From assembly GCA_030390025.1 (NCBI GenBank), contig CM059432.1:9672001-9736000 (forward strand): a DNA stretch of 64,000 nucleotides, given 5' to 3'. The translations under genes were made by a program, and so were the position numbers. The notes beneath the pieces were generated by a model that worked only from the letters and a program-made list of their open reading frames with translations, ran no database searches and was not told where the DNA came from. This stretch comes from Squalus acanthias (lineage: Eukaryota). Positions 3,089 to 58,665 of the stretch are shown one piece after another; position 1 is the first letter of the stretch, and the number at the start of each line of letters is the position of its first letter.

Positions 3089-3767
3089 TTCAAATATTAG
3101 CGTGCACGCGTTTGCCTGCTCACATAAATATCCTTCGCCTGGCATTTTAAAGGAGTCATTAACCAGTTAGCAGCACTCTTAAAACTGCATAGAAAAGTAT
3201 TTCATACGGATCTGTGAAGGATATATACACAGAAATTCGAAGTAGCTGATTTCAAGGCACTCACCTTTTTCGGAATATTTTTGACCCTTCTAATTTGGGA
3301 TAAGAACTCGAGGGCATGGCAGTGAGAGCTAAATTCACACACACAATAGAAATGATGGTCCGGAATATCTTGGGAATATGCTCCATCGTATCAATGTTGT
3401 AGGGCCCGATTTACAGCGCAAAAGGCCGAGGAAATTACGACGCAAGTGGCTTATGCCATTACTTATGCCATGCTGTTACCCTCACCGAAACAGCACTTAA
3501 ATAAATTGTCATAGCTCCGTCACCCGCCCAATTAAATTCAACGGCCAAAGCGAGTTTCCTGACTGGACGCTTGTTTTTCCGCCCCCGCCACTTACGATTC
3601 AATAATAATGGCGCTGGAGTCTTGGCAGCAGAGTGATTTATTGCTCCAAGATCGAATGCGACATCCTAGCCAGCTGATTGAATATTTTTTTATTTGTTTA
3701 TGAGATTGTGGGAGTCGCTGGCAAGGCCAGCATTTATTGCCTGTCCCTAATTGCCCTTGAGAAGGTG

Positions 3768-4322
3768 ATAGAGTCATAATAGAGTCATAACGGCACAGAA
3801 GGAGGCCATTCGGCCCATCGAGTCCACGCCGGCTCTCTGTAGAGCAATCCAGTCAGTCCCATTCCCCCGCTCTATCCCCGTAGCCCTGCAAGTTTATTTC
3901 CTTCAAGTGCCTATCCAGTCTCCCCTTCAAAACATTGAGTGTCTCCGCTTCCACCACATCCGTCGGCAGCGAATTCCAGGTCCTCACCACTCGCTGCGTA
4001 AAAAAGTTTTTCCTCACATCACCCCCCCCCGTATCTCTTGCCCAAAGCCTTAAATCTGTGTCTCCTAGTCCTTGTACCATCAACTAGTGGGAACAGCCTT
4101 TCCCCGTCTAGCCTATCCAAACCCGTCATAATCTTGTACACCTCTATCAAATCGCCCCTCAACCTCCTTTGCTCTAATGAAAACAAATCCAGCTTCTCCA
4201 ACCTGTCCTTGTAGCTGAGATCCCCCCATCCCCGAACCATTCTGGTAAATCTCCTCTGCACCCCCTCAAGGGCCTTCACATCCTTCCTAAAGTGTGGTGA
4301 CCGGAACTGGACGCAATACAGT
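3768..4322 (-). mobile_element. CR1 LINE 3' fragment, inserted into a CR1-group tail (3690-3767 and 4322-4370)
   Basis: ORFs 4019..4345 and 3853..4083 give YCVQF.SPH, RRLRGDLIEVYKI and FFTQRVV. The tail is (TATGACTC)n. Near-identical subfamily to 54740-55418. Confidence 0.9.
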
Positions 4323-11084: not shown

Positions 11085-11814
11085 GGGCCAGAAATACGGT
11101 TTTCCGGCTTCCTGCGGGTGCAAGCATCGCGCGTGTACTTACCTACCGCGCCTGCCGTTGTGTTTTGGGCCCACGAGAACTTCGGGTCCTGGGCCTCCTC
11201 CAGCTGCCGGCGCGCAGTGCTTGCGTGTCCCAGGGGCGCAGTTGGTTCGAAGCGTCCCCTGGGATCACGTGGGCCATGGAGAGCCAATCCTAGCAGACCA
11301 TTTTCATTCATAGATTTGACAGGCCCCAAAACAACACCTAAACTTCAAATAAATTACAAATAAAACATCACATTTTTAAAATAACTATAAGTTAAATAAA
11401 TTAACTACTTTAAACAAAAATTTAAATTTTTGAAAAAATTAAAATACTTTTTAACGGTGCTAAAAATAAACTTACCTTTCTTTAAAGTATCTAAAAAAGA
11501 TAAACCTGTTGAAAATTTTTTTAATTGTAATTAATTAACCACTTACCTTGTTAAAAACACGCCTTGCGCCTCCTTTTTAAAAGTGCAGCTTCTTCATACT
11601 TACCTTCCCGGAGAAACCTGAAAAAAACCCGAAGTTCGCTGCGTGCGCGCAGCCTCTCCCGCGCAACGGTTCACCTCTGAACCCCTCCCTTCACGAGACC
11701 GGAAGTTCCGGTTTCCCGCGCATGCGCAGTGCATGCAGGAAACCAGCACTTCAAGTGGCCTTACGGGTGAGTACACAGCGCGTACTCACCCGACAAAAGC
11801 CGAATTTCTGGGCC
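11085..11814. mobile_element. Non-autonomous PIF/Harbinger-type MITE, family C
   Basis: TIRs GGGCCAGAAAT / ATTTCTGGGCC, 3-bp TSD AAT. Homologous in inverted orientation to 23012-23776 and 29584-30326. Confidence 0.8.
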
Positions 11815-19445: not shown

Positions 19446-21221
19446 GGCCAGAATTTTACCAGTGCTCAGAGGGCGGGTTTGAAGGCGGGTCCACTGTCAA
19501 AATTACAAAGATCAACAGCGGGTCGATATTCCGCTGTAAACCCGCCTTCTTGTCAGTTTCCCAAGTGTCGGGTCTGTCATTCCTGAACGGACCCGACACC
19601 AAGTGGCGGGTCAGCCAATTTAGATACTTAAAAGCTTGTTAAAAGGTAGTTAAGCACCATTTTCCCATGTACTTACCACTTTACCGGGTTTTTAAAGAGG
19701 TTCCCGGAGAGCGGGTGTCACGTCAGGTAAGTGTGTCGTGCTCTCAATGACACTCCATTGCTGTGAATAGGTGAAAGCTGCAAAAGTGGTATAAAACCTA
19801 CCATTTCACAGCTGTTCACTTCCCAATCTTAGAAGCTGGAGCCTTCATGATTTGGAACCCACTTTTGAGCTTTACGTAGTTTGGAAGTGTTTGGAGTAAA
19901 CTCTCTATCCACTGTCACCTCCTTGGAGCAAGCTCTCTCACCATTGACAGATCGCTTCTGTCATCTCAACTTCAGCTGCTATCTATTCCAGCAACATCGG
20001 TGCCCTTGAAACTATCTCACCTTGGTCCTCGGAAACCCAACACAATCAGCCCCAACACCAGCATCACCGGGCACACCAGCAACAACAACAACAACACCAA
20101 CCTTCTCCGCAATCACCTGATGCTGCACAGGACACAGGGCATCAGCACCCGACCACATTGCTGCCCGGGACGCCAGCGATGACCTCACCATGGCCAGATT
20201 TACTTCACTTGACGCTGTACACCCTGGCTGCCACAAGATGCGCCAGGTTGGCACCACCCCACACCAGCAACATAAAGCATCCCTACAATGCCCAAACCAT
20301 TCCTTTCACACTCATCACCATTGCAGGGGGTACCGTTATGTCTCACCATTCACTGCAACTCACTAAGCCACTTCAAAAGGTGCACACAAATCTGTCCAAG
20401 AACGCAAAGTGTTGAAAATAAAAATTTCAATGTTTGACACCACATTAACAGAAACTTTACATGAACATTGGATAAAATACCCAAGTGCCTACCCTTGTGT
20501 GTTGTTAGTTGGTATGCTTGCAGTAGGATGAGGGTGAGTGTGAGGGGTGGCTAGTGAGATGGGGAAGTGATAATGTAGATAGAGAGGGATGGGTGGAGGT
20601 GCAAGGTAAGTTGGTGTGAGTAAGGATGTGCAGGAGTAGGGGTAGGGAAGGCAGAGTGATGGGGATGTGATAAGTGGCACAGCAGGATGAGGTTGAGTGT
20701 GGCTTTGCAGTAATGTTTTGTGATCTGTTGAGATCATTGAAAGGTTTGCACCACTGCAGCCTGGTCCTCCTTGTGACATCCCTGCTTGTGTCCTCCTGTG
20801 CAATGTGCAACCAGGCTGCGTTAGTCTCCTGGGGAGGTGTCACCCGCCCATTGGAAGGGAAGAGAACCTCCTTGCGTGCTGTGACTCCCTCCATAAGCAT
20901 ATGGAGGGAGTCATGCGAGAGCCTGGGTGCAGCTGTGCACCTCTGTGCAGTGCTTGTCAGTGTTTGCAGCACCTCAATGCTGTAGAGCACTGACAGCGCA
21001 ACTGTCAAAATCAATTTGGACATGGTCCCTTTAAGGAAACCGGCTAATGACGTGTCATCAAATGGCGTCATCAGACCCGCTTCCTTTTAATTGGCCGGGA
21101 ACCTCGCAGGGCGGGCTTAACAAGCCCAATCAACGGAAAATTCTTCTCACAGAGCGGGATGGAAGCGTCCGGCACCTACCTCAGCCGTACTTAGCCTGCC
21201 TCAGTAGGCGAAATCGCGGCC
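19446..21221. mobile_element. Internally deleted PIF/Harbinger transposon, family A
   Basis: Imperfect TIRs GGCCAGAATTTTACC / GGCGAAATCGCGGCC, TSD TAA. Carries a Myb/SANT-like ORF on the minus strand and a Q-rich/C-terminal transposase-like remnant on the plus strand. Second copy at 35762-38173. Confidence 0.85.
20505..21071 (-). pseudogene. Harbinger Myb/SANT-like DNA-binding protein remnant
   Basis: APRLSHDSLHMLMEGV..RKEVLFP...AAWLHIAQE......RTRLQWCKPFNDL follows the NAIF1/MSANTD-like trihelix pattern (PRFS..L.LL..V....LF...W..IA..V...RT..QC.K.FNDL). Confidence 0.75.
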
Positions 21222-21737: not shown

Positions 21738-22622
21738 GGGGGGAAAATTCAGTTGGTTGCGCCTCCCATTAGCGCCTTAAGAGGGCGCTAATGGGGTGCA
21801 AAGCATCTAGCGCCCGGGCGCGGCGATATTTGCGCCGCTCGCGAAATTAACTAAACATTTTGCGGCGGCGCTAAACAGTACCACCACGATCTCCTGCGCT
21901 GGCAGATCGTGATTTCAGTCGAGTGCGCAACGCCCCGGGAGCGCCCCGGAGCAGATATTGAGTGGCGCCCCCTGCCTTACCGCCTGCCGCTAGCAACGAC
22001 AGGTTGAGGGGAGCGTTTTGCAGTCAGGAAGGGACTGGGGGAGCTCTATTTAAAGGCGACCGCTTCCTGCCTTTTTTTGTTGGTGACATTTTTGAACCAC
22101 ACATTCTGAGAGAGGGACTTCTGGAGCGATTCAACGCTGTTTGAAGGAGTTTTGGGTACTGAGCAGCACTTTGCAGGTTCATTTTGATTTGCCCTTCTTT
22201 TGTATCGATTTAGAAGAGACTGTGGGGGCTGCGCTCTGAGCTCTTTCCCTGGGCCTCTCCATTGTTCTTTCCAGCAGATTTGATGTACAGGTCTCTCCAG
22301 GCCGAGATTCAAGGCTGCAATGAGCAGGATGTGGATGGAAAGCAAGATCAACCCTCCCCTTTAAGAACTGGCCAGCGCCATTGTGTCTGTGTTCCATTGC
22401 TGACTGACATCACATGAGCTTCGCCAGCGCTCTGAGGTAACGCCTCGCTCCTCGGCTTTGCGCCTTAAGACAGATGTGTAGCGCCTGATTTAGCGCTCCA
22501 ATCACCTCCAGGGGCGATAAAAGTCAAGTTTGCAGTCGGAGGCCATAATTAGCGTCAGGCGCTAATCTTTGCGCCCGGCCGATAATTGCGCCCCAAATGG
22601 GGCGATACTGAATTTCTCCCCC
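21738..22622. mobile_element. Harbinger-type non-autonomous element, family B, in a CR1 tail
   Basis: 16-bp TIR GGGGG(G/A)(A/G)AAATTCAGT, TSD ATA, flanks gtcATA|ATAgagtc. Confidence 0.85.
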
Positions 22623-23011: not shown

Positions 23012-23776
23012 GGCCCGAAAATTAGACCTAATACGCGAGAGTACGCATTGTGTACTCTCGCGTATTAGGTCTCCAATTGTCGGTTTCCTGCATGCACTGC
23101 GCATGCGCGGGAAACCGGCACTTCGTGAATTCAAAAGGGGGCGGTTCCTAATTGAACCGTGTGCGCGCTACAGGCTGTGCGCACGCAGTGCACTTAGTTA
23201 TTTTTTCAGCTTTGAACGCGCAGGTAAGTGGTGAACATTTTACACATAAAGAAAGCAGGCGTAGGACCCCCTTTTTACAAGGTAAGTAGTTAATTAAGTG
23301 TTATTTTAAAAAATTTTCAACAGGTTTATCTTTTTTAGAGACTTTAAAGAAAGGTAAGTTTATTTTTATAACATTTAAAAAGATTTAACATTTTTTCAAA
23401 AATTTAATTTTTTGTTTAAAGTGGTTAATTTATTTAACTATACTTATTTTATTAATGTGATGGCTTTTTAAAAAAATTTAATTGAGGTTTAGCTGTTCTT
23501 TTGGGGGGGTATAGTATTCATAGCTTTGACAGGTCTTCCTGTCAAAACTATGAATGAAAGATGGTGTGCTGCCATTGGCTCTAACTGAATCACGTGATCC
23601 CAGAGCTCGCACGAACTAATTGCGTCTCTGGGTCACGCAAGCACTGCACGGTTCCAAGAGAGAGAGCCTTTCAGACTAAAGTTCGTGTGGGCCCGGAGCA
23701 AAAAGGTAGGCGCGGAGTGCGATATCGCGGGGATTCCTTACCCCCGCGGGAACCCTCACTGTTTAATTTCTGGGCC
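23012..23776. mobile_element. Harbinger-type MITE, family C
   Basis: TIRs GGCCCGAAAATTA / TAATTTCTGGGCC, TSD ATT. Confidence 0.8.
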
Positions 23777-29426: not shown

Positions 29427-30630
29427 AACAACAACAGCAGCATCAACTTGGGTTTATATAGCACCTTTAACGCAGTAAAACGTCCCAAGGCACTTCACAG
29501 GAGCGTTATCAGACAAAATTTTACACCCAGCCACATAAGGAGATATTCGGACAAGTGACCAAAAGCTTATGTAGAATTACATAGGCCCAAAAATTAGTCT
29601 CAGTACGCGAGAGTACGCACTGTGTACTCTCGCGTATTCTGTCTCCAATTGCCGATTTTCTGCATGCACTGCGCATGCGCTGAAAACCGGCACTTGGTGA
29701 ACTCAAAAGGGGGCGGTTCCTAGGTGAACCGCGTGCGCGCTACAGGCTGCGCGCACGCAGTGCACTTAGTGCTTTGAACGCGCAGGTAAGCATGGAAGAT
29801 TTTGCACATAAAGAAAGGAGGCATAAGACCCTCTTTTAACAAGGTAAGTAGTTAATTAAGTATTATTTTAAAAAATTTTCAACAGGTATATCTTTTTTAG
29901 AGACTTTAAAGAAAGGTAAGTTTATTTTTATAACTTTTAAAAAGATTTAAAAATTTTTCAAAAATTTAATTTTTTGTTTAAAGTGGTTAATTTAATAAAC
30001 TATACTTATTTTATTAATGCGATGGTTTAAAAAAAAAATTTAATTGAGGTTTAGCTGTTCTTTTGGGGTGTATAGATTCATAGCTTTGACAGCCCTTGCT
30101 GTCAAAACTATGAATGAAAGATGGTGTGCTGCCATTGGCTCTAACTGAATCACGTGATCCCACAGCTCGCACGAATTAACTGCGTCTGTGGGATACGCAC
30201 ACACTGCACAGCTGCAGCCTTGAAACTAAAGTTCGTGTGAGCTCGGAAGGAAAAGGCAGGCGCGCAGTGAGATATCGCGGGGAAGCCTTACCCCCGCAGG
30301 AAGGCTCCGTCTTTAATTTCTGGGCCATAGAGTCCACAGCACAGAAACAGGCCATTCGGCCCCACTGGTCCGTGCAAGCGTTTGTGCTCCACACGCGCCT
30401 CCTCCCACCCCTCTTCGTCTAGCCCTATCAGCATACCCTTCCAGCTTGGTCAAAGAGGTAGGTTTTACGGAGAAGGAGAGGCGGCGAGGCTTTAGGGAGG
30501 AAATTCCAGAGCTTAGGGCCGAGGCAGCTGAAAGCACGGTTGCCAATGGTGGGGCGAAGGAAATCGAGGATGCGCAAGAGGGCAGAAATTGGAGGAGCGC
30601 GGAGATCTCGGAGAGTTGTAGTAATTGGGG
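29427..30630 (-). mobile_element. L2 3' end split (29427-29570 and 30445-30630) by a CR1 tail that carries a MITE
   Basis: Pieces are colinear with the L2 at 59500-59997 (GPKLWN.LPK). Confidence 0.7.
29584..30326. mobile_element. Harbinger-type MITE, family C, inserted in a CR1 tail
   Basis: TIRs GGCCCAAAAATTA / TAATTTCTGGGCC, TSD ATA, right flank ATAgagtccacagcacagaaacaggccattcgg. Confidence 0.82.
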
Positions 30631-31494
30631 TTAAATAATATGATTGGGATGGAGTTGGTGGGAGCTGTACTTCTGTATCTAACCAAGCGATGGCTGGCTT
30701 GGGAGGGCTTGATGCTGACACTGAAATCCAAAAGTGAAAAAAAGTCATAGAGTCACAACGGCACAGAAGGAGGCCATTCGGCCCATCGAGTCCATGCCAT
30801 TGTAGCATTGGCAACCCTCACCGTTACCAGAACCAAAGATTCAATATATTTTTTTGATAAAGTGCACATTTCTATGAAAATCCAGCAGTCAACCAATAAA
30901 TTCCACACATCTAATCTGCATTCAAATCTTCATGCATGCTATTTGGTAAATCTAACTGTTGGATGCGTTTGCAATCTGAATCGAGAGATGTTCTGAGGCC
31001 CGTCCATTGCACTGGAGTCAGGCAGCTTGACCAGCAGTACCACTTGGCTTCTGCTACTTTATCTCTGCACATCTACTTTGGTACAGTGGCGCTCTAACCT
31101 TTCGCTTTCCCCTTTATGAAAGGAGAACTTATTTTCAATGCAATTATCAGCTAAAGGCATTTTTTATTCCAATACCTCTAAAATTAGTAAAGTATAATGA
31201 GCACTAAGAATTGATTGTATCCTTAGGGAACATTTTGCATGAAGCGATTCATTTTGCCTCACTAAATTACAAATTATTGATGACGTTGTCACTTTTGCGA
31301 CAAAATTTATTGTTTTATGCATTAACCGAAGTCACGCAATTAGTCCAACCTTAATAAATATTTCTAAATGGACTTTATTTAATTCTTACGCCACTGTGAG
31401 ATTTTGAAGAGCTGTCACTTGTTACTTTTCAATTTTGCTATAAATCTGCATCCATTTTATTGTGAAGTCCCAATAGCCCATTCGATGTGGTGTT

Positions 31495-33190
31495 CACCAT
31501 GGCTCAGTGGGTAGAACTCTTGCCTCCAAGTCCAGACCGTCATGAGTTCAAATTCCTACTACATAAGACTTGAGCCCAAAATCTAGGCTGGCACATCAGT
31601 ACCAGTACTGAGGGAGTGCTGCATTGTCTGGAGGTGTCGTCTTTAGGAACAGACGTTAAACCAAGGCCCTGTCTGCCCTCTCAGGTGGATGCAAAAGGTC
31701 CCATTGCACAATTTTGAAGAAGAGCAGCAGAATTCTCCAATTGTCCTGTCCAATATTTATCCCTCAACCAACACCTGAAAACAGATTATCTGGTCATTAT
31801 CACATTGCTGTTTGTGGGAGCTTGCTGTGCGCAAATTGGCTGTCGCATTTCCCTACATTACAACAGTGACTGTACTTCAAAAAGTACTTATAGAGTCATA
31901 GGGGGAAAAATTCAGTATCGCCCCATTTGGGGCGCAATTATCGGTCGGGCGTAAAGATTAGCGCCTGACGCTAATTATCGCCTCCGACTGCAAACTTGAC
32001 TTTTATCGCCCCTGGAGGTGATTGGAGCGCTAAATCAGGCGCTTCACACCTGTCTTAAGGCGCAAAGGCCGAGGAGCGAGGCGCTAACTCAGAGCGCTGG
32101 CGAAGCTCATGTGATGTCAGTCAGCAATGGAACACAGACACAATGGCCCCGGCCAGTTCTTAAAGGGGAGGGTCGATCTTGCTCTCCAGCCACATCCTGC
32201 TCATTCCAGCCTTGAATCTCGGCCTGGAGAGACCTGTACATCAAATCTGCTGGAAAGAACAATGGAGAGGCCCAGGGAAAGAGCTCAGAGTGCAGCCCCC
32301 ACAGTCTCTTCTAAATCGATACAAGGAAGGGCAAATCAAAATGAACCTGCAAACTGCTGCTCAGTACCCAAAATTCCTTCACACAGTGTTGAATCACTCC
32401 AGAAGTCTCTCTCTCTCTCTCAGAATGCGTGGTTCAAAAATGTCGGCAACAAAAAAAGGCAGGAAGCGGTCGCCTTTAAATAACGCTCCCCCAGTCCCTT
32501 CCTGACTGCAAAACGCTCCCCTCAACCTGTCATTGCTAGCGGCAGGCGGTAAGGCAGGGGGCGCCACTCAATATCCACTCTGGGGCGCTAACGGGGCATT
32601 GCGCACTCGACTGACGTCACGATCTGCCGCCGCAGGAGATCGTGGTGGTACTGTTTAGCGCCGCCGTAAAATGTCTAGTTAATTTCGCGAGCGGCGTAAA
32701 CATCGCCGCGCCCGGGCGCTAGTTGCTTTGCGCCCCATTAGCACCCTCTTGAGGCGCTAACGGGAGGCGCAACCAACTGAATTTCTCCCCCATAGAGTTA
32801 TACAGCACAGAAAGAGGCCCTTCGGTCCATCGTGTCCACACCGGCCATCAAGCCCTGTCTATTCTAATCCCATTTTCCAGCACTTGGTCCGTAGCCTTGT
32901 ATGCTATGGCATTTCAAATGCTCATCTAAATGCTTCTTGAATGTTGTGAGGGTTCCTGCCTCTACCACCCTTTCAGGCAGTGAGTTCCAGATTCCAACCA
33001 CCCTCTGGGTGAAAAAGTTTTTCCTCAAATCCTCTCTAAACCTCCTGCCCCTTACCTTGAAACTATGCCCCCTGGTTATTGACCCCCCTACTAAGGGGAA
33101 AAGTTCCTTTCTATCTTCCCTATAATTTTGCCCCTCATAATTTAGTACTTCATTGGCTGTAAAGCGCTTTGGGACGTCCCGAGGCAGTGA
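31495..33190 (+). mobile_element. SacSINE1 (31495-31889 and 33140-33190) interrupted by a minus-strand CR1 3' end (31890-33140)
   Basis: The SINE resumes at agtacttcattggctgtaaagcg. CR1 motifs are at 32792-33140. Confidence 0.8.
31901..32791. mobile_element. Harbinger-type element, family B, in a CR1 tail
   Basis: TIR GGGGGA(A/G)AAATTCAGT, TSD ATA. Inverted homolog of 21738-22622. Confidence 0.88.
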
Positions 33191-35757: not shown

Positions 35758-35946
35758 CAAAGGCCATGATTTTGCCGGCGCTCAGTGGGCGGGTTCGGAG
35801 GCGGGTCAGCTGTTAAACTCGCAATGATTGACGGCGGGTTGTAAACCCACCGCGATCCCACCTCCGTGTGAGTTTCCAAAGTGTCGGGTCTGCGATCTCA
35901 GAACAGACCCGACACCAAGCGGTGGGTGAGGCATTTAAGACACTTA

Positions 35947-36605
35947 GGGGCAAAAATAGGGTCGCGCCCCCTTTGGGGCGCTAACTTTGCCGGGGCGCTA
36001 CTTTTAGTGCCCTGAAAAAGTTAGCGTCCCCGTGCCCGAAATTCGATGGTAGCGCCCCAAGCAGGAGGCGGGGCGCTACTGGAAGCACTCCCCCTCCCTC
36101 TTGGGGTGCTCCAGCCCAATATCGCGGCGCGAGTGCCGCAGCGCCACACTCGCCGGCACGTCGCGCCGCGGTACTGCAGGCCTTCCTCGCCTTATTAAAG
36201 GGGAGGGGCCTAGCGCAGCATGATCCGGGGCCCCCGCTGGGCCACCAGGGAGCGGGGGTGTTGGCAAAAGAGCCCAGCACTCAAGAGGAGCGCTGGGCTG
36301 ACGGATGAGGGGGCAGGTGCTGGCAGACAGCCAGCAAAAAAAATGGCCGCCAGGCGCCTCCCCTTTGAATATCGCCGCCCAGGCCAAATGTACACCCCCC
36401 TGACCCTGTCGGACATAGCGTCCGGCGGTACGTCAGGGGGTGCAACCAAAGTTTGCAGCCAGGGCGCGTAGGGGCGCTGCGCATGGCGATGACATCATTG
36501 CCGGAGGCGCAGTGCTGCGGGGCGCTACCGGCTACCGCTGCCGCTAATCTCCCGCTGAATTTCGCGGCACTAATGGGAGGCGCAAAGCAACCGAATTTTG
36601 CCCCC
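35947..36605. mobile_element. GC-rich Harbinger-type MITE nested in the family A copy
   Basis: TIRs GGGGCAAAAAT / AATTTTGCCCCC, TSD TTA. Absent at the equivalent site (about 19628) of the other family A copy. Confidence 0.85.
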
Positions 36606-37490
36606 TTAACTCCTTGTTAATTGCTTGTTGATTGCTATTTTGACAGCCTTTTCCTATTTTTCCACATTTTAAACAGGTTTCACAACATTCGGAGATCACG
36701 TCAGGTAAGTATGTCGGGAGTAGCAGCGAGCTGCATAGTTCACAGCTGCAACTGCAGTATAAAAGCTGAACTCTCACATCTGTTCTCTTTCAAATGTTAG
36801 AGGTTGCTGATTTCAGGATTTTGAAGACACGTTTGATCTGTCTGGAAGCTGAAAGTGTGTGGTCTTAACTCTATATGCACTGTCCCCTCCTTGCAGCAAG
36901 CTCTCTCTCCATTGACAGATCGCTTCTGCCATCTCAACTTCAGCTGCCATCTATTCCAGCAACATCGGTGCCCTTGAAAAAATCTCACCTTGGTCCTCTG
37001 AATCCCTCCACGATCAGCCCCAGCACCAACATCACCAGGCACACCAGCATCACCAACAACAGCACCAACCTTCTGCGCAATCACCTGATGCTGCACAGGA
37101 CACAGGGCATCAGCACCCGACCACATTGCTGCCCGGGAGGCCAGGGTTGGCACCACCATGGCCAGATTTACTTCACTTGACACTGTACACCCTGGCTGCC
37201 ACATGATGTGACAGGTTGGCACCTCCCCACACCCGCACCATAAGACATTCCTAAAATGACCAAGCCATTCCTTTCACACTCATCACCATTGCGGGGGTTA
37301 CCGTTATGTTTCACCGTTCACCGCAACTCACAAAGACACTTCCAAATGTGCACACAAATCTGTCTAATAACGCAAAGTGTTGAAAATAAAGGTTTCAATG
37401 TTTGGCACCACATTAACAGAAACTTTACATGAACATTGCATAACACACCCAAGTGCCTACCCTTGTGTATTGTTAGTTGGTATGATTGCA

Positions 37491-38036
37491 CTAGGATGAG
37501 GGTGAGTGTGAAGGGTGGCTAGTGAGATGGGGAAGTGATAATGTAGATAGAGAGGGATGGGTGGAGGTGCAAGGTAAGTTGGTGTGAGTAAGGATGTGCA
37601 GGAGTAGGGTAGGGAAGGCAGAGTGATGGGGATGTGATGAGTGGCACATGAGTGAGGTTGAGCGTGGCTTTGCAGTAACGTTCCGTGATCTACTGAGATC
37701 ATTGAAAGGTTTGCAGCACTGCAGCCTGGTCCTCCTGACCACATCCCTGCTTGTGTCCTCCTGTGCAATGTGCAACCAGGCTGTGTTGATCTCCTGGGGA
37801 GGTCTCTTCCGCCCATTGGAAGGGAAGAGAATCTTCCTGGGTGCTGTGACTCCCCCCATAAGCAGATGGAGGGAGTCATGGGAGAGCCTGGGTGCAGCCG
37901 TCCACCTTTGTGCAGTGCTTGTCAGTGCTTGCAGCACCTCAATGCTGTAGAACACTGACAGCAGAACTGTCAAAATCAATGTGGCCGTGGTCCCTTTAAG
38001 GAAACTGGCTGATGACGCGTCATCAAATGACGTCAC
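37491..38036 (-). pseudogene. Harbinger Myb/SANT-like protein remnant
   Basis: APRLSHDSLHLLMGGV...ILFPSNGRKRPP....AWLHIAQE...RRTRLQCCKPFNDL. Confidence 0.75.
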
Positions 38037-38639
38037 CAGACCCGCAGGGTGGGCTTAACAAGGCCAATCTACGGAAAACCCTTTTCACAGAGCAGCTGCA
38101 GCCAGGAGCGGGACTGGAACCCGCCAACCAGCTCTCCCGCCGCCATCCCGCCTCTGCTGGGAAAATCCTGCCCAAAGGATATTTAGATTGGGAGACAATT
38201 CAGTAGAATGCACTCCCTCTTAATTTCAAGTTGATAAGTTAGTATATCGAGGCTAAATGATCTCAGGAGGCGCGGTGATGAAATCAGAAGAGAGCAGGTG
38301 CTGGCAGCGGCCCATTGCTTCAAGTTAATGATGGGATGGAACATGAAGAGTTTCTCCTTGCAAACCAAACTCAGATTGCATGACTGTGTGGTAGTGAAAC
38401 ATGATGCCTTCGGGCAGCAGATGAATAAAGATTGCTAGTGGCAGGAATGTCATATCTAAGATGCATTGTAGTCATTTCTAGGCTCCAGAGGCTTAGAAAC
38501 GTCACAAGCAAGCTTCCACTGAGCGAAATGGTGGTGGCCCGCCTCAGTGACAGATGACTCAGATAGTTCAGCAGGCTAGGTGATGGCAGATTAGTGAAGA
38601 CTGTTTGTCATTCCTGAGTAGAAGCAACAAGACCAAGAG

Positions 38640-52675: not shown

Positions 52676-54739
52676 GTCTGATAACCTGAGTAATACACTT
52701 CAGGGGTTTTCCTGAATAGCGTGCCATCCAGTATTGTGCAGTATTATGGTGTTAGTTACCTTGCGTATTTTGTTAGACGGGATGCACTCTAGAGTTGAGT
52801 TTTACATTATATGCATCATTACTAATAGACTCACAACTCTACTGCTTCACCCACTGAAACCACTGCAATCGCCCTGAACAACATGCAGTCTATTCATCCA
52901 CACAGCTTCCCTCTCCGTCCATGTTACGTTTACACATTTGCAGGCAGCGAGCACAGCATGGTTTGTGGGAACAATTGTACTTTCTCAATCCTGCATCTCA
53001 ACAGCTCCCTCTTTTATACATTTTCACACAAACTCCATTTGCTCAGGTTGGGGGGGGAGGGGTGGGGGGGAGGGGCGGGGGGCTTGGGGGGGTGGTGGAA
53101 TCATAAAGTTATCTAAAACATTGCCCTACTTTTGGGTAATGCTGTGCATTTTAAAGATGATCCCTTAATCTCACTCTGAAACAGCTGAATGTTGCCCCCT
53201 GAAGCTTGCGGTGGTAAAGGGCAGCGTGTACTCAGCCAGTCTCATCAGATTTACTTGCTGACAGTACAGCAATAACCGAACAGCTATAAGATTTTGGTTT
53301 CTTTTTCCCTTGACCGCTGTCCTGTGTGCGTTTGTGCTTTACGCACCCATGCAGCACTTGGCGCTTTTACTAACGATACCTTTTATTCCTAATGACAAAT
53401 TTTCCGAGTGCAGTAACAGAGATATGAGAAATACACACGGCTGTGTTTCGAGGTGATAAATTAGTGTCTGGTTTTCACAGTGCTTTCGAGCTCCCCGCAT
53501 AGTCTTCAAGGATGTAAAGGCAGTTATATCGCATGATGTGAATGCAATTTTAATTCCTGCATAATTTCACCTTATGCAGTGCTATACCGACTGCGCTTAA
53601 AAAAACCAAGATGAAATAGCTGGAATAAATGATCCTTATTGAGAAGTGATCCTACTATTGATGCTGCAATGAAGCGAGAGAGTCAAGTCAACTAACTACC
53701 TCGCAGAATAGAGCTGCCTCATCTTATCCACACAGCATTAGGCAGAGCTCAAGAGCAATTATTCTGAGTACAGGTTCCTACCTCAGTCACTGTATCAGAG
53801 GACCTGCCATGGAAGCCGCAAATCCCCTCCGTCCTTTCTGTCAGCTTTCAGTGATAAATTCAGGCGCTGGTTTCAAACTTGCTGCTGGTCCTGGGACAGA
53901 CACTCCAGGAAATGAGTGTGTTTCGCTCCTGTCAAGAAGTGCTGACGAGAGAATTCAGCAGGGAATTCAGCATTTTAGAAACTATTTCTTGCACTGTTTT
54001 TTTCACGACCTGATCTACATTTGCTCGTTCGAAGGGTCTCCTCGCTGTTTGCTGTCATTGATCCACTGCCTCTTGAACAGCTCAGGCTCTCTGTGAAGAG
54101 GGAGCAGGGGGACTGGAATCAACCAATTAAGAGATGTGTCTGGGTGTCAGTAACAAGAGATGTACACTGACAAACACCCAGTGGTGAATTATTAATGACT
54201 GTCAGACTGAAATGTTAGAACCCCGCACTTGAATAAACATATCCAGAATGATTTAAATGGGGACAGTTCCTATTAGATCTTTTTTTTTTCCTCATCGCCA
54301 TCGTTTGCATAAGAAAACATTTATCGCTGCTGCGTCTGTAATTAATTCAGACAGCAATGAACTCCAAAAAATTCATCTAATTAACCAAGAGGGCCGCGTT
54401 TCAAAGCCTTGAGGTTTGAGAATATATTTTCAAAGACTTAGTCCAATATGATCAAAAATAATTACATTTACCTTCAACTCAGAATAAACAATTTATACTT
54501 TGAAAGCAACTGCAATGCATAATTATGTAACAAAAATTCTATTTAATTTTGTTGTACATCATTTTTGCAAAGCGATCCTCAATGAGTAAAGTGGATCTAA
54601 TTATGATCAACTCGAGTGAAAATACGATGGAAGTTCTGCTTTGCGGATGTTTCTAATTTAATATTGTTGATGCAGTGTCAGCCTCTTTATATTGAGCATT
54701 AAAGGGACATTATTTTTCATGAAAGATGGAGAAAAAAAG

Positions 54740-55418
54740 GTCCCTAAAGGTGGCAGGGCATATTGAGAGAGTGGTTAACAAAGCATATGGGATCTTGGGC
54801 TTCATAAATAGAGGTACCGTGTATAAAAGTAGAGAAGTTATGCTGAACCTTTATAAAGCACTGGTTAGGCCACAACTGGAGTATTGGGTCCAGTTCTGGT
54901 CACCACACTTTGGGAAGGATGTGAAGGCCCTTGAGAGGGTGCCGAGGAGATTTACCAGAATGGTTCCGGGGATGGGGGATCTTAGCTACAAGGACAGGTT
55001 GGAGAAGCTGGATGTGTTTTCATTAGAGCAAAGGAGGTTGAGGGGTGATTTGATAAGAGGTGTACAAGATTATGACGGGTTTGGATAGGCTAGACGGGGA
55101 AAGGCTGTTCCCACTAGTTGATGGTACAAGGACTAGGGGACACAGATTTAAGGTTTTGGGCAAGAGATACAGGGGGGACGTGAAGAAAAACTTTTTTACG
55201 CAGCGAGTGGTGATGACCTGGAACTCTCTGTCGACGGAAGTGGTGGAAGCGGAGACATTCATTGTTTTAAAGGGGAGACTGGATAGGCACATGAGGGAAA
55301 TAAACTTGCAGGGCTATGGGGATAGAGCGGGGGAATAGGACTGACTGGATTGCTCTACAGAGAGCTGGCACAGACTCGATGGGCCGAATGGCCTCCTTCT
55401 GTGTCGTTATGACTCTAT
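54740..55418 (+). mobile_element. CR1 3' part whose (TATGACTC)n tail hosts two transposons
   Basis: ORFs 54726..55088 and 55060..55338. Confidence 0.92.
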
Positions 55419-56308
55419 GGGGGAAAATTCAGTTGGATTGCGCCTCCCGTTAGCGCCTTAAGAGGGCGCTAATGGGGCGCAAAGCAACTAGCGCCCGTGC
55501 GCGGCGATGTTTGCGCCGCTCACGAAATTAACTAGACATTTTGCGGCAGCACTAAACACTACCGCCACGATCTCCTGCGCCGGCCAATCGTGATGTCAGT
55601 AGAGAGTGCAACGCCCCGGTAGCGCCCCAGACCGGATATTGAATGGCGCCCCCTGTCTTACCGCCTGCCGCTAGCAACGACAGGTTGAGGGGAGCGTTTT
55701 GCAGTCAGGAAGGGACTGGGGTGCACTATTTAAAGGCGACCGCTTCCTGCCTTTTTTTGTTGGTGACATTTTTGCACCACGCATTCTGAGTGAGAAAGAA
55801 AGAATGCAGGAGATATTCAAAGCTGTGTTGAGGAGTTTTGGGTACTGAGCAGCACTTTGCAGGTTCTTTCTGGTTTGAGCTTCCTTGCATCGCTTTAGAA
55901 GAGAATATGGGGGCTGCAGTCTGAGCTCTTTCCCTGGGCCTCTCCATTGTTCTTTCCAACAGATTTGATGTGCAGGTCTCTCCAGGCCGAGATTCAAGGC
56001 TGCAATGAGCAGGATGTGGATGGAGAGCAAGATCAACCCTCCCCTTTAAGAACTGGCCGGCGCCAGTGTGTCTGTGTTCCATTGCTGACTGACATCACAT
56101 GAGCTTCGCCAGCGCTCTGAGGTAGCGACTCGCTCCTCGGCCTTTGCGCCTTAAGACAGGTGTGTAGCACTTGATTTAGCGCTCCAATCACCTCCAGGGG
56201 CAATAATAGTCAAGTTTGCAGTCGGAGGCGATAATTAGTGCCAGGCGCTAATCTTTGCGCATGGCCGATAATGGCGCCCCAAACGGGGCGATACTGAATT
56301 TTTCCCCC
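55419..56308. mobile_element. Harbinger-type element, family B
   Basis: TIRs GGGGGAAAATTCAGT / ACTGAATTTTTCCCCC, left flank gactcTAT, right flank TGT (probably a mutated TAT). Confidence 0.88.
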
Positions 56309-56319
56309 TGTGGCTCTAT

Positions 56320-57070
56320 GGGGGAAAAATTCGTTTGCTTTGTGCCTCCCGGGCGCGGCGATGTGAGCGCCGCTTGCGAAATTGACCAGTTGTTTTGCGG
56401 CGGCGCTAAACACTACCGCCACGATCTCCTGCGCCCGCAGATCGTGACGTCAGTCAAGCGTGCAACGCCCCGGTAGCGCCCCAGACCGGATATTGAGTCG
56501 CACCCCCTGCCTTAGCGCCTGCTGCTAGGAATGACAGGTAGAGGGGAATGTTTTCAAGTCAGGATGGGGCTGGGGGAGCGCTATTTAAAGGCGGGCGCTT
56601 CCTGCCTTTTTTTGTCAGCAAAACTTTTGGTTTTAACGCTGTCTTAAGGAATTTTGGCCCTCAGCTTTTGAGGTTCCTAAGCACCGAGCTCTTTCCCTGG
56701 GCCTATCCATTAGTGCTTCCAACACAATTGCTTTTGCGGTCTCTCCAGGCCAAGATTCAAGGCTGCAATGAGCAGGGAGTGGCTGGCCAGCAAGATGGCC
56801 CCTCCCCTTTAAGAACTGGACGGCGCCAGTCTGTCTGGTTTCCATGGTAATTGGCATCGCCTGAGCTTCGGTAGCGATCTGAGGTAGCGCCTCACTCCCT
56901 GACGTTTGCACCTTAAGAGAGGTGTGTCGCGCCTGATTTAGCGCTCAAATCACCTCCAGGGGCGATAGAGGCGAATTTTGCAGTCGGAGGCGATAATTAG
57001 CGCCGGGCGCTAAATTTTGTGCCCGGCCGATATTAATGCCCCAAAATGGGCGATACTGAATTTTTCCCCC
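56320..57070. mobile_element. Harbinger-type element, family B (diverged subfamily)
   Basis: TIRs GGGGGAAAAATTC / GAATTTTTCCCCC, left flank ctcTAT, right flank GATgactc. Confidence 0.85.
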
Positions 57071-57315
57071 GATGACTCGAGGTCAACAATTTGGCAAGGT
57101 CACTTCATTAGAACATAAGAACATAAGAAATAGGAGCAGGGGTCGGCCAGACGGCCCCTCGAGCCTGCTCCGCCATTCAATAAGATCATGGCTGATCTTC
57201 GACATCAACTCCACTTTCCTGCACTATCCCCATATCCCTTGATTCCCTTAGTGCCCAAAATTCTATTGATCTCAGCCTTGAACCTACTCAACGACTGAGC
57301 CTCCACAACCCTCTG

Positions 57316-58665
57316 AAATAGCGGAGCACTTAGCAAATGGGGACAGGATAGGACAGAGTCAACATGGATTTACAAAGGGTAAATCGTGCTTGACTAATCT
57401 ATTGGAATTTTTTGAGGGAGTAACTGGTAAAATAGATGGGGGAGAGCCAGTAGATGTGGTGTACCTGGACTTCCAAAAGGCCTTCGACAAGGTCCCACAT
57501 AAAAGATTAGCATGGAAAATTGAAGCTCATGGGATAAAGGGGAAAGTATTGACGTGGATAGAGAACTGGCTGTCAGATAGAAAACAGAGAGTTGGAATAA
57601 ACGGCTCATTTTCTGAATGGCAGGCAGTAACAAGTGGGGTACCACAGGGATCTGTCCTGGGTCCCCAGCTGTTCACAATTTACATTAATGACCTGGATCA
57701 GGGAGTCGGATGCAGCATTTCCAAATTTGCAGACGACACTAAACTAGGAGGGGGGGTGGGCTCAGAGGAGGAGACCAGGAAGCTCCAGAGCGATTTGGAC
57801 AGACTGGGTGATTGGGCGGATAAATGGCAGATGCACTATAATGTGGACAAGTGCGAAGTTATCCACCTTGGGTGCAGGAACGGGAGGGCAAATTATTATT
57901 TAAATGGCAATAAATTGGGAGAGGGGGAAGTACAGAGAGACCTGGGTGTTCTTGTACACCAGTCACTGAAGGCGAGCATGCAGGTGCAACAGGCGATCAA
58001 GAAGGCAAACGGTATGCTGGCCTTCATAGCAAAAGGGTTGGAATACAGGAACAGGGATACCTTGCTGCAGCTGTACAGGGCACTGGTGAGACCAGACCTC
58101 GAGTACTGTGTACAGTTTTGGTCACCTCATCTGAGGAAAGATGTTCTTGCCATGGAGGGGGTGCAGCGGCGATTCACCAGGCTGATACCAGGAATGGCGG
58201 GATTGACCTATGAGGAGAGACTATGTAGTTTAGGGATGTACACACTGGAGTTTAGAAGATTGAGAGGGGACCTCATAGAAGTGTATAAAATTCTGACAGG
58301 TCTAGACAGACTAGATGCAGAAGGAATGTTTCCCTTGGCGGGTGAGAACAGAACTAGAGGACATAATTTAAGGATAAGGGCTAAACCATTTAGGACAGAA
58401 ATGAGGGGGAATTTCTTCACTCAGAGGGTGGTGAACCTATGGAACTCATTGCCACAGAGGGCAGTGTACGCCAGCTCATTAAATATATTTAAGAGGGAAT
58501 TAGATATATTTCTGCAGGCAAAAGGGGTTAAGGGTTACGGAGAGAAGGCGGGGACGGGATACTGAATTGGAGGATCAGCCATGATCTCATTAAATGGCGG
58601 AGCAGGCTCGAAGGGCCGGATGGCCTACTCCTGCTCCTATCTTCTATGTATCTATGTATCTATGT
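57316..58665 (+). mobile_element. Young 5'-truncated CR1 with an uninterrupted RT frame
   Basis: 391-aa ORF 57390..58565 (DFQKAFDKVPH, GVPQGSVLGP, KFADDTKL) with no stops, (TCTATGTA)n tail. Confidence 0.97.

Follow-up and report, generated by a model that had tools for sequence, protein, structure and literature searches.

Two related MITEs, probably inserted independently, in neighboring repeat units of a CR1 retrotransposon tail

We examined a locus at which the 3' end of a CR1 retrotransposon is followed by two related transposable elements, E1 and E2, within a 64,000-nt stretch of DNA (the window). From left to right, the locus is composed of the following features:

54738-55418, plus strand: 5'-truncated CR1 LINE, with the end of ORF2, the 3' UTR, the first tail unit TATGACTC and TAT (assigned by translation and a paralog match)
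54738-54742, plus strand: AGGTC at the CR1 5' junction, with a second copy at 57080-57084
55408-55415, plus strand: first CR1 tail unit, TATGACTC (from sequence)
55416-55418, plus strand: TAT, left target-site triplet of E1 (from sequence)
55419-56308, plus strand: E1, a non-autonomous element with terminal inverted repeats (TIRs), that is, a MITE, 890 nt long, of the same subfamily as copies A and B
56309-56319, plus strand: spacer TGTGGCTCTAT, made up of TGT (right triplet of E1), GGCTC (remainder of tail unit 2) and TAT (left triplet of E2)
56320-57070, plus strand: E2, a MITE of a second, high-copy subfamily, 751 nt long, 18%-19% from E1, A and B
57071-57078, plus strand: GATGACTC, made up of GAT (right triplet of E2) and the last tail remnant, GACTC
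57080-57084, plus strand: AGGTC, right-hand copy of the CR1 junction sequence

This arrangement of a tail, an 890-bp element, an 11-bp spacer and a 751-bp element matches the original prediction exactly, with its coordinates confirmed. The two transitions it had reported in the spacer are also there: TGTGGCTCTAT differs from TATGACTCTAT at two of 11 positions, both A>G. So is the internal difference between the elements, with 140 of 749 aligned columns differing and four blocks of E1 (about 48, 39, 6 and 47 nt) missing from E2. Terminal inverted repeats (GGGGG(A)AAAATTC) are intact at both E1 and E2; E1, E2, A and B all have arms of 13-15 nt that start with GGGGG at either end, and the ends of the family read GGGGGAAAATT. 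The 3-nt duplication is imperfect at E1 (TAT/TGT) and at E2 (TAT/GAT), and perfect in the remaining eight of the 10 MITE-like shells in the window. Excising both elements, each with one triplet, leaves a three-unit tail, TATGACTC TATGGCTC TATGACTC. E1 and E2 are non-coding elements, and E1 had no Pfam match in any of the six frames. The E elements are CpG-rich, with an observed/expected ratio of 0.78-0.88 (0.50 in the window), and each has 13-16 GCGCC/GGCGC words, compared with a window average of 1.75 per kb; these words are possible subterminal binding sites for a Myb-like helper.

The DNA upstream of E1 translates as the C-terminal end of a CR1-type ORF2, which is followed by a 3' UTR and an 8-nt microsatellite tail. 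We take this piece to be CR1 on the basis of its motifs and of BLAST matches to other CR1-like copies; it is short and gave no Pfam match in any of the three forward frames. The copy is 93% identical to a paralog at 3779-4319. Its tail unit, TATGACTC, differs from the 8-nt unit of the usual CR1 microsatellite, ATTCTRTG (PMC8665684).

We compared positions 54401-57400 with contigs of four of the 21 public runs listed, representing two individuals of organism A and one run each of organisms H and J. A contig from the unique flank runs into the CR1, to 54776, in both organism A runs. In the other two organisms, orthologous contigs align over 54401-54740, with 18 differences in organism H and 22 in organism J over ∼339 nt (flank divergence of 5%-6.5%). 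Past 54740 they continue with 153 and 180 other letters, which had no matching piece among those listed. Since these matches end at the CR1 5' junction, we infer that the CR1 inserted after the split from these two relatives. Contigs of paralogous CR1 copies begin matching at 54738, and the AGGTC found on both sides of the locus is likely a target duplication, or microhomology, of the CR1 insertion.

Two further observations concern neighboring and related CR1 copies. Directly to the right of the locus (57105-58660) lies a CR1 tail fragment in inverted orientation, joined to a longer CR1 piece in forward orientation whose open stretch spans 427 residues (RVT_1, E 2e-23); only ∼26 unique letters lie between this and the studied insertion. 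The tail of the closest paralogous CR1 (3761-3796, minus strand) reads TATGACTC TAT TATGACTC TAT, with the extra TAT exactly at the would-be position of a MITE. This TAT may have been left by an excision in which the duplication was retained, or may be a product of tail slippage; PIF/Harbinger excision is mostly precise, and a retained duplication would be unusual.

The closest relatives of E1 in the window are two solo copies:

21738-22622, plus strand: copy A, solo E1-type MITE with a perfect ATA/ATA duplication in a GACTCTAT tail, in the orientation opposite to the tail
31901-32791, minus strand: copy B, solo E1-type MITE with a perfect duplication in a GACTCTAT-type tail, in E1's orientation relative to the tail

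Only ∼20-30 nt of CR1 are left in the host of copy A, and the host of copy B is a LINE/SINE end different from the others. E1 differs from A in 71/882 aligned columns and from B in 78/889 (8%-9%), and A differs from B in 49/883; the distance between E1 and E2 (140/749) amounts to 18.7%. Among 747 gap-free columns, 102 sites were private to E2. Sites common to E1 and E2 only (eight) were not more frequent than sites common to E1 and A only (seven). A five-row tree joined E1, A and B with a support of 99/100, so that E1 and E2 are not each other's closest relatives, a case that the original prediction had named as refuting it. The distance between E1 and E2 is even along their length and equal to the distances between A and E2 and between B and E2; a search for gene conversion along the length of the pair found no converted patch.

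These comparisons speak to the possibility that the pair arose by a local tandem duplication, in which one element and its tail unit were doubled by unequal crossing-over at the TATGACTCTAT repeat and then diverged. The layout is exactly the one that this process predicts, an element and an 11-nt unit occurring twice in succession, yet E1 groups with A and B and not with E2, and the E2 type is high-copy in three species. If the CR1 is younger than the species split, duplicates formed inside it should be at most ∼6% apart; the observed 18.7% far exceeds the 5%-6.5% that separates the flank from species without this CR1 (Fisher p = 4e-8 for 140/749 vs. 22/339). We therefore rejected a local duplication on the strength of the tree and the dating, barring a later whole replacement of E1 or E2 by gene conversion from another subfamily, and regard it as very improbable. 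The same tree and the youth of the CR1 relative to 18.7% support the earlier claim of two separate insertions 8 bp apart.

The E2 type is clearly a multi-copy subfamily in three species (organisms A, H and J). Summed contig depth, a quantity not equal to copy number, was 11-23 in the unique flank and 28,000-165,000 in the 100-nt bin that holds E2 deletion junctions. Relative to the unique flank, depth was ∼2200-8700-fold in the deletion-bearing interior of E2 in all four runs, and ∼28,000-32,000-fold in the interior of E1. The consistently high depth over the E2 interior makes its deletions look like subfamily traits. No junction of the E1 and E2 pair was spanned by the contigs listed for the four runs, which likewise showed no empty allele of the locus and no allele with one or two elements, and a scan of metagenome, genome and viral contigs for the element-end pattern returned 0 stretches. 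Some contigs join E1 to E2 while skipping 853-863 nt; we rejected these joints as collapsed alleles of the locus, the skip being equal to the offset between homologous positions. The joints run from 55529/55539 to 56393 and from 55712/55713 to 56570/56572; their contigs match E1 to the left of the joint and E2 to the right, which suggests that subfamilies of mosaic or intermediate type exist at other places in these genomes.

The state of the spacer counts against two insertions made in place. Three changes in a tail of ∼19 nt exceed the expectation from the local age (P 0.04-0.10), and the spacer, which differs from the tail's own unit at 2/11 positions, is one deletion away from a tail variant, TGTGGACTCTAT, seen at 30350. 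Both points would be eased if E1, spacer and E2 had been assembled elsewhere and had moved as a unit, a composite transposon, into a two-unit tail: two later changes would then be needed instead of three. Such a unit would have used the left end of E1 and the right end of E2, with TAT/GAT as its outer duplication, and these outer ends do form a valid inverted pair. On the other hand, both inner ends are intact, the two nearest relatives of E1 in the window are solo with clean duplications, and two insertions 8-9 nt apart would still be required at the donor locus. We consider a composite origin unlikely.

A census of 29 rows, less three (two non-tails and one duplicate) and plus two, gave 28 tail-like ends. 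A MITE was present in four of the six GACTCTAT tails and in none of the 22 tails of other types (p = 7e-4), and the E family alone accounted for three of the six (p = 6e-3), counts that are small and that compare tail types of possibly different age. The occupied GACTCTAT tails are those with A, B, the E1 and E2 pair, and D, a member of an unrelated family. All four E-type copies in the window sit at GACTC-TAT-GACT tail sites, at three independent loci. Relative to the tail, the inserted elements point either way, and the LINE/SINE ends that they follow differ; the initial TAT of a tail has no left half-site and was never used. Three additional features are relevant here:

29584-30326, strand not given: D, a MITE of another family with GGCCC ends, at the GACTC-TAT site of a CR1-type tail
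30747-30799, minus strand: empty paralogous tail with an unused GACTC-TAT-GACT site
35947-36605, minus strand: C, a distant relative of E (44% apart) with a TAA duplication, outside CR1 tails

BLAST found no match between D and the E elements. D belongs to a second MITE family, with copies at 29584-30326, 23012-23776 and 11085-11814 (D, F and G), that has GGCCC...AAATT ends and internal hairpins; its members are 72%-87% alike and have a pyrimidine-WWW-purine target in all three cases. Only one of the three, at 29584-30326, is in a CR1 tail. In a 5576-nt contig, a relative of the left end of E1 (15 differences and two gaps in ∼131 nt) lacks a tail flank. Given this contig, the position of C, the one-in-three usage by the D family and one perfect tail site that is empty, the tail preference is not absolute.

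We tallied the flanks of ten MITE-like shells picked by eye. Left triplets were A/T-only in 10/10 shells, with a pyrimidine at -1 in nine, a purine at +1 in all 10, A at -4 in six and T at +4 in nine. The resulting broad motif, A-N-N-Y-WWW-R-N-N-T, occurs at 161 sites in the element-free window, four of them in GACTCTAT-type tails; we rejected it as the sole cause of the clustering, 161 sites being too common. A tighter motif does account for it. The tail site ACTC-TAT-GACT equals the consensus AAACACCWGGTCTTT of zebrafish Harbinger3_DR, as given in PMC3016246, at six of eight flanking positions (chance of about 0.008 over two orientations), compared with four, four and two of eight for other tail units. 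A merged pattern, A-S-W-C-WWW-G-W-S-T, was perfect at only five of 8902 WWW sites in the element-free window, a rarity that is partly post hoc, the pattern having been written after the sites were seen. Three of these five are GACTCTAT tails, and the two outside tails are empty. The E sites match the merged pattern at 8, 8, 7 and 7 of eight positions.

That all four E-type copies lie in tails while two perfect motif sites outside tails stand empty could point to true homing to CR1 3' ends, through an upstream hairpin, a bound protein or integration intermediates, over and above the 11-nt motif. Several observations argue against this: the remnant of CR1 beside copy A is only ∼20-30 nt long and copy B follows the end of a different element, both orientations occur, none of the 22 other CR1-type tails is used, one perfect tail site is empty, and an unrelated MITE family has used the same site once (one of three copies). 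We therefore think such homing rather improbable. From the sequences compared, the specificity looks like a preference, of the type known for PIF/Harbinger, for a short palindromic motif in the DNA; the tail happens to repeat this motif. The original prediction had called the double insertion the strongest single-locus evidence for target specificity. This statement calls for a qualification, given a palindromic motif that the tail repeats, an unrelated element (D) at the same site and more distant relatives (C and the 5576-nt contig) outside tails. The count across loci (4/6 vs. 0/22) outweighs the single double-insertion locus as evidence.

From the anatomy, the split into two subfamilies, the clustering in GACTCTAT tails and the match to the motif, we infer, with a probability of roughly three in four, two independent MITE insertions from two subfamilies, made with a PIF/Harbinger-type motif preference into a CR1 tail that repeats the motif and was there first. 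A CR1 copy with a three-unit (TATGACTC) tail would have inserted after the split from the two relatives. One abundant PIF/Harbinger-type family would next have supplied two MITEs of different subfamilies, which inserted independently and in either order, one at the TAT of unit 2 and the other at that of unit 3, duplicating TAT each time; three point changes would have followed, in the spacer and the right triplet. The transposase complex would prefer an ∼11-nt quasi-palindrome, A-S-W-C-[WWW]-G-W-S-T, which the GACTCTAT unit spells every 8 nt and which is rare elsewhere. The first insertion would leave the adjacent site intact for 8 nt on its near side, so that a second element could land beside the first. 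The CR1 variant would thus scatter rare high-affinity sites genome-wide, and a large fraction of these would be filled by the abundant MITE family. A double insertion is to be expected when MITE copies number tens of thousands and about half of the GACTCTAT tails are occupied.

If this is correct, one repeat builds landing pads for another, with a LINE tail variant spreading a rare Harbinger-type target periodically and MITEs crowding into it, adjacent units included. The double insertion would limit the recognized target to about 8 nt on either side. Filled and empty tail sites, in their thousands, would form a natural dataset from which to read the target code of such an enzyme in vertebrates, and near-irreversible markers for dating relatives would be available in stacked sites. 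A bolder proposal, which we put forward with considerable doubt, is that the E lineage has specialized on the 3' microsatellite of one CR1 variant and that an arms race between transposon and retrotransposon drives LINE tail evolution. The CR1 tail is thought to be a signal needed for reverse transcription. Under this proposal, saturation of tails (about half of the GACTCTAT tails in the window) would disable CR1 source copies and select for CR1 tails that do not spell the motif, such as ATTCTATG, TTTCTATG and TTCTTATG; these three types are free of MITEs in the window.

Sequence features make the E elements likely PIF/Harbinger MITEs. Their TIRs have the G start that, with A, is usual in the PIF/Harbinger (PHIS) group. 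The 3-nt duplication has one mismatch each in E1 and E2 and is perfect in A and B, for which the tail at 30747-30799 provides an empty paralogous site. Read as 5 nt, the duplication suits A and B just as well and fails in three of the six other shells. The extended palindromic target is present, based on only four E sites at three independent loci. The triplet TAT/ATA of the family is not TWA, nor does it fit any of the other PHIS group consensuses (ANT, CWG and TNA) in PMC4482050, and we place the E family in no named group. A search within the window for a transposase gene with E-type ends found none. Two TIR shells at 19446-21221 and 35762-38173 (83% alike, with 3-nt duplications TAA and AAA) contain a decayed Myb-like reading frame. 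One gave a weak Myb_DNA-bind_5 score (18.6 bits, below the cut-off of 21.7) and the other none, and neither had a transposase match. Element C is nested inside the shell at 35762-38173, whose left flank, ACAC, equals a Harbinger3_DR half-site. The E elements and these two shells have similar short ends and gave no BLAST match to each other.

PIF/Harbinger elements are known to have an extended target preference (9 nt in plants and 15 nt in vertebrates), to duplicate 3 nt and to be mobilized by two proteins (PMC2836001 and PMC9179366); a plant PIF consensus was looked for in the literature searched, was not found and plays no part here. That literature held no report of MITEs preferring CR1 tails (subscription papers and Repbase entries lay largely outside the search), and passages of PMC4122938, PMC2213677, PMC5738225 and PMC8437027 held nothing on CR1 tails. 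The principle of extended Harbinger target preference and of hot spots in repeats is already known, and a CR1-tail target is apparently undescribed.

Among known systems, zebrafish Harbinger3_DR and Harbinger3N_DR (Sinzelle et al. 2008, as described in PMC3016246 and PMC2836001) resemble the E family in a 3-nt duplication within an extended palindromic target, and Harbinger3N_DR is, like E, a non-autonomous TIR element. The center of the Harbinger3_DR target is CWG rather than TAT/ATA, and positions +/-2 are swapped (PMC3016246). For E, unlike Harbinger3_DR, a LINE tail provides the motif in large numbers and at regular spacing. Tourist-like MITEs and PHIS elements including NuwaII, as described in PMC2836001 and PMC4482050, share with E G-rich short TIRs, a lack of coding capacity, a very high copy number and a 3-nt duplication with a flanking preference. 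NuwaII even has the same ambiguity between 3 and 5 nt (C|TNA|G, as in C|TAT|G of E), whereas a typical MITE of 100-500 nt is shorter than the E elements (750-890 nt). A precedent for the stacked arrangement comes from Dada-U1A_DR and Dada-U1B_DR, two related, target-preferring DNA transposon families found in tandem in a multicopy target (PMC3706591). Dada makes a 6- to 7-nt duplication and has a strict target in conserved small-RNA genes, and its tandem copies are parted by the duplication alone. In the E family, 4/4 close copies are in tails, with the relative in the 5576-nt contig and C outside them, and E1 and E2 lie at two separate sites, 8 nt from each other, within a microsatellite that is dispensable.
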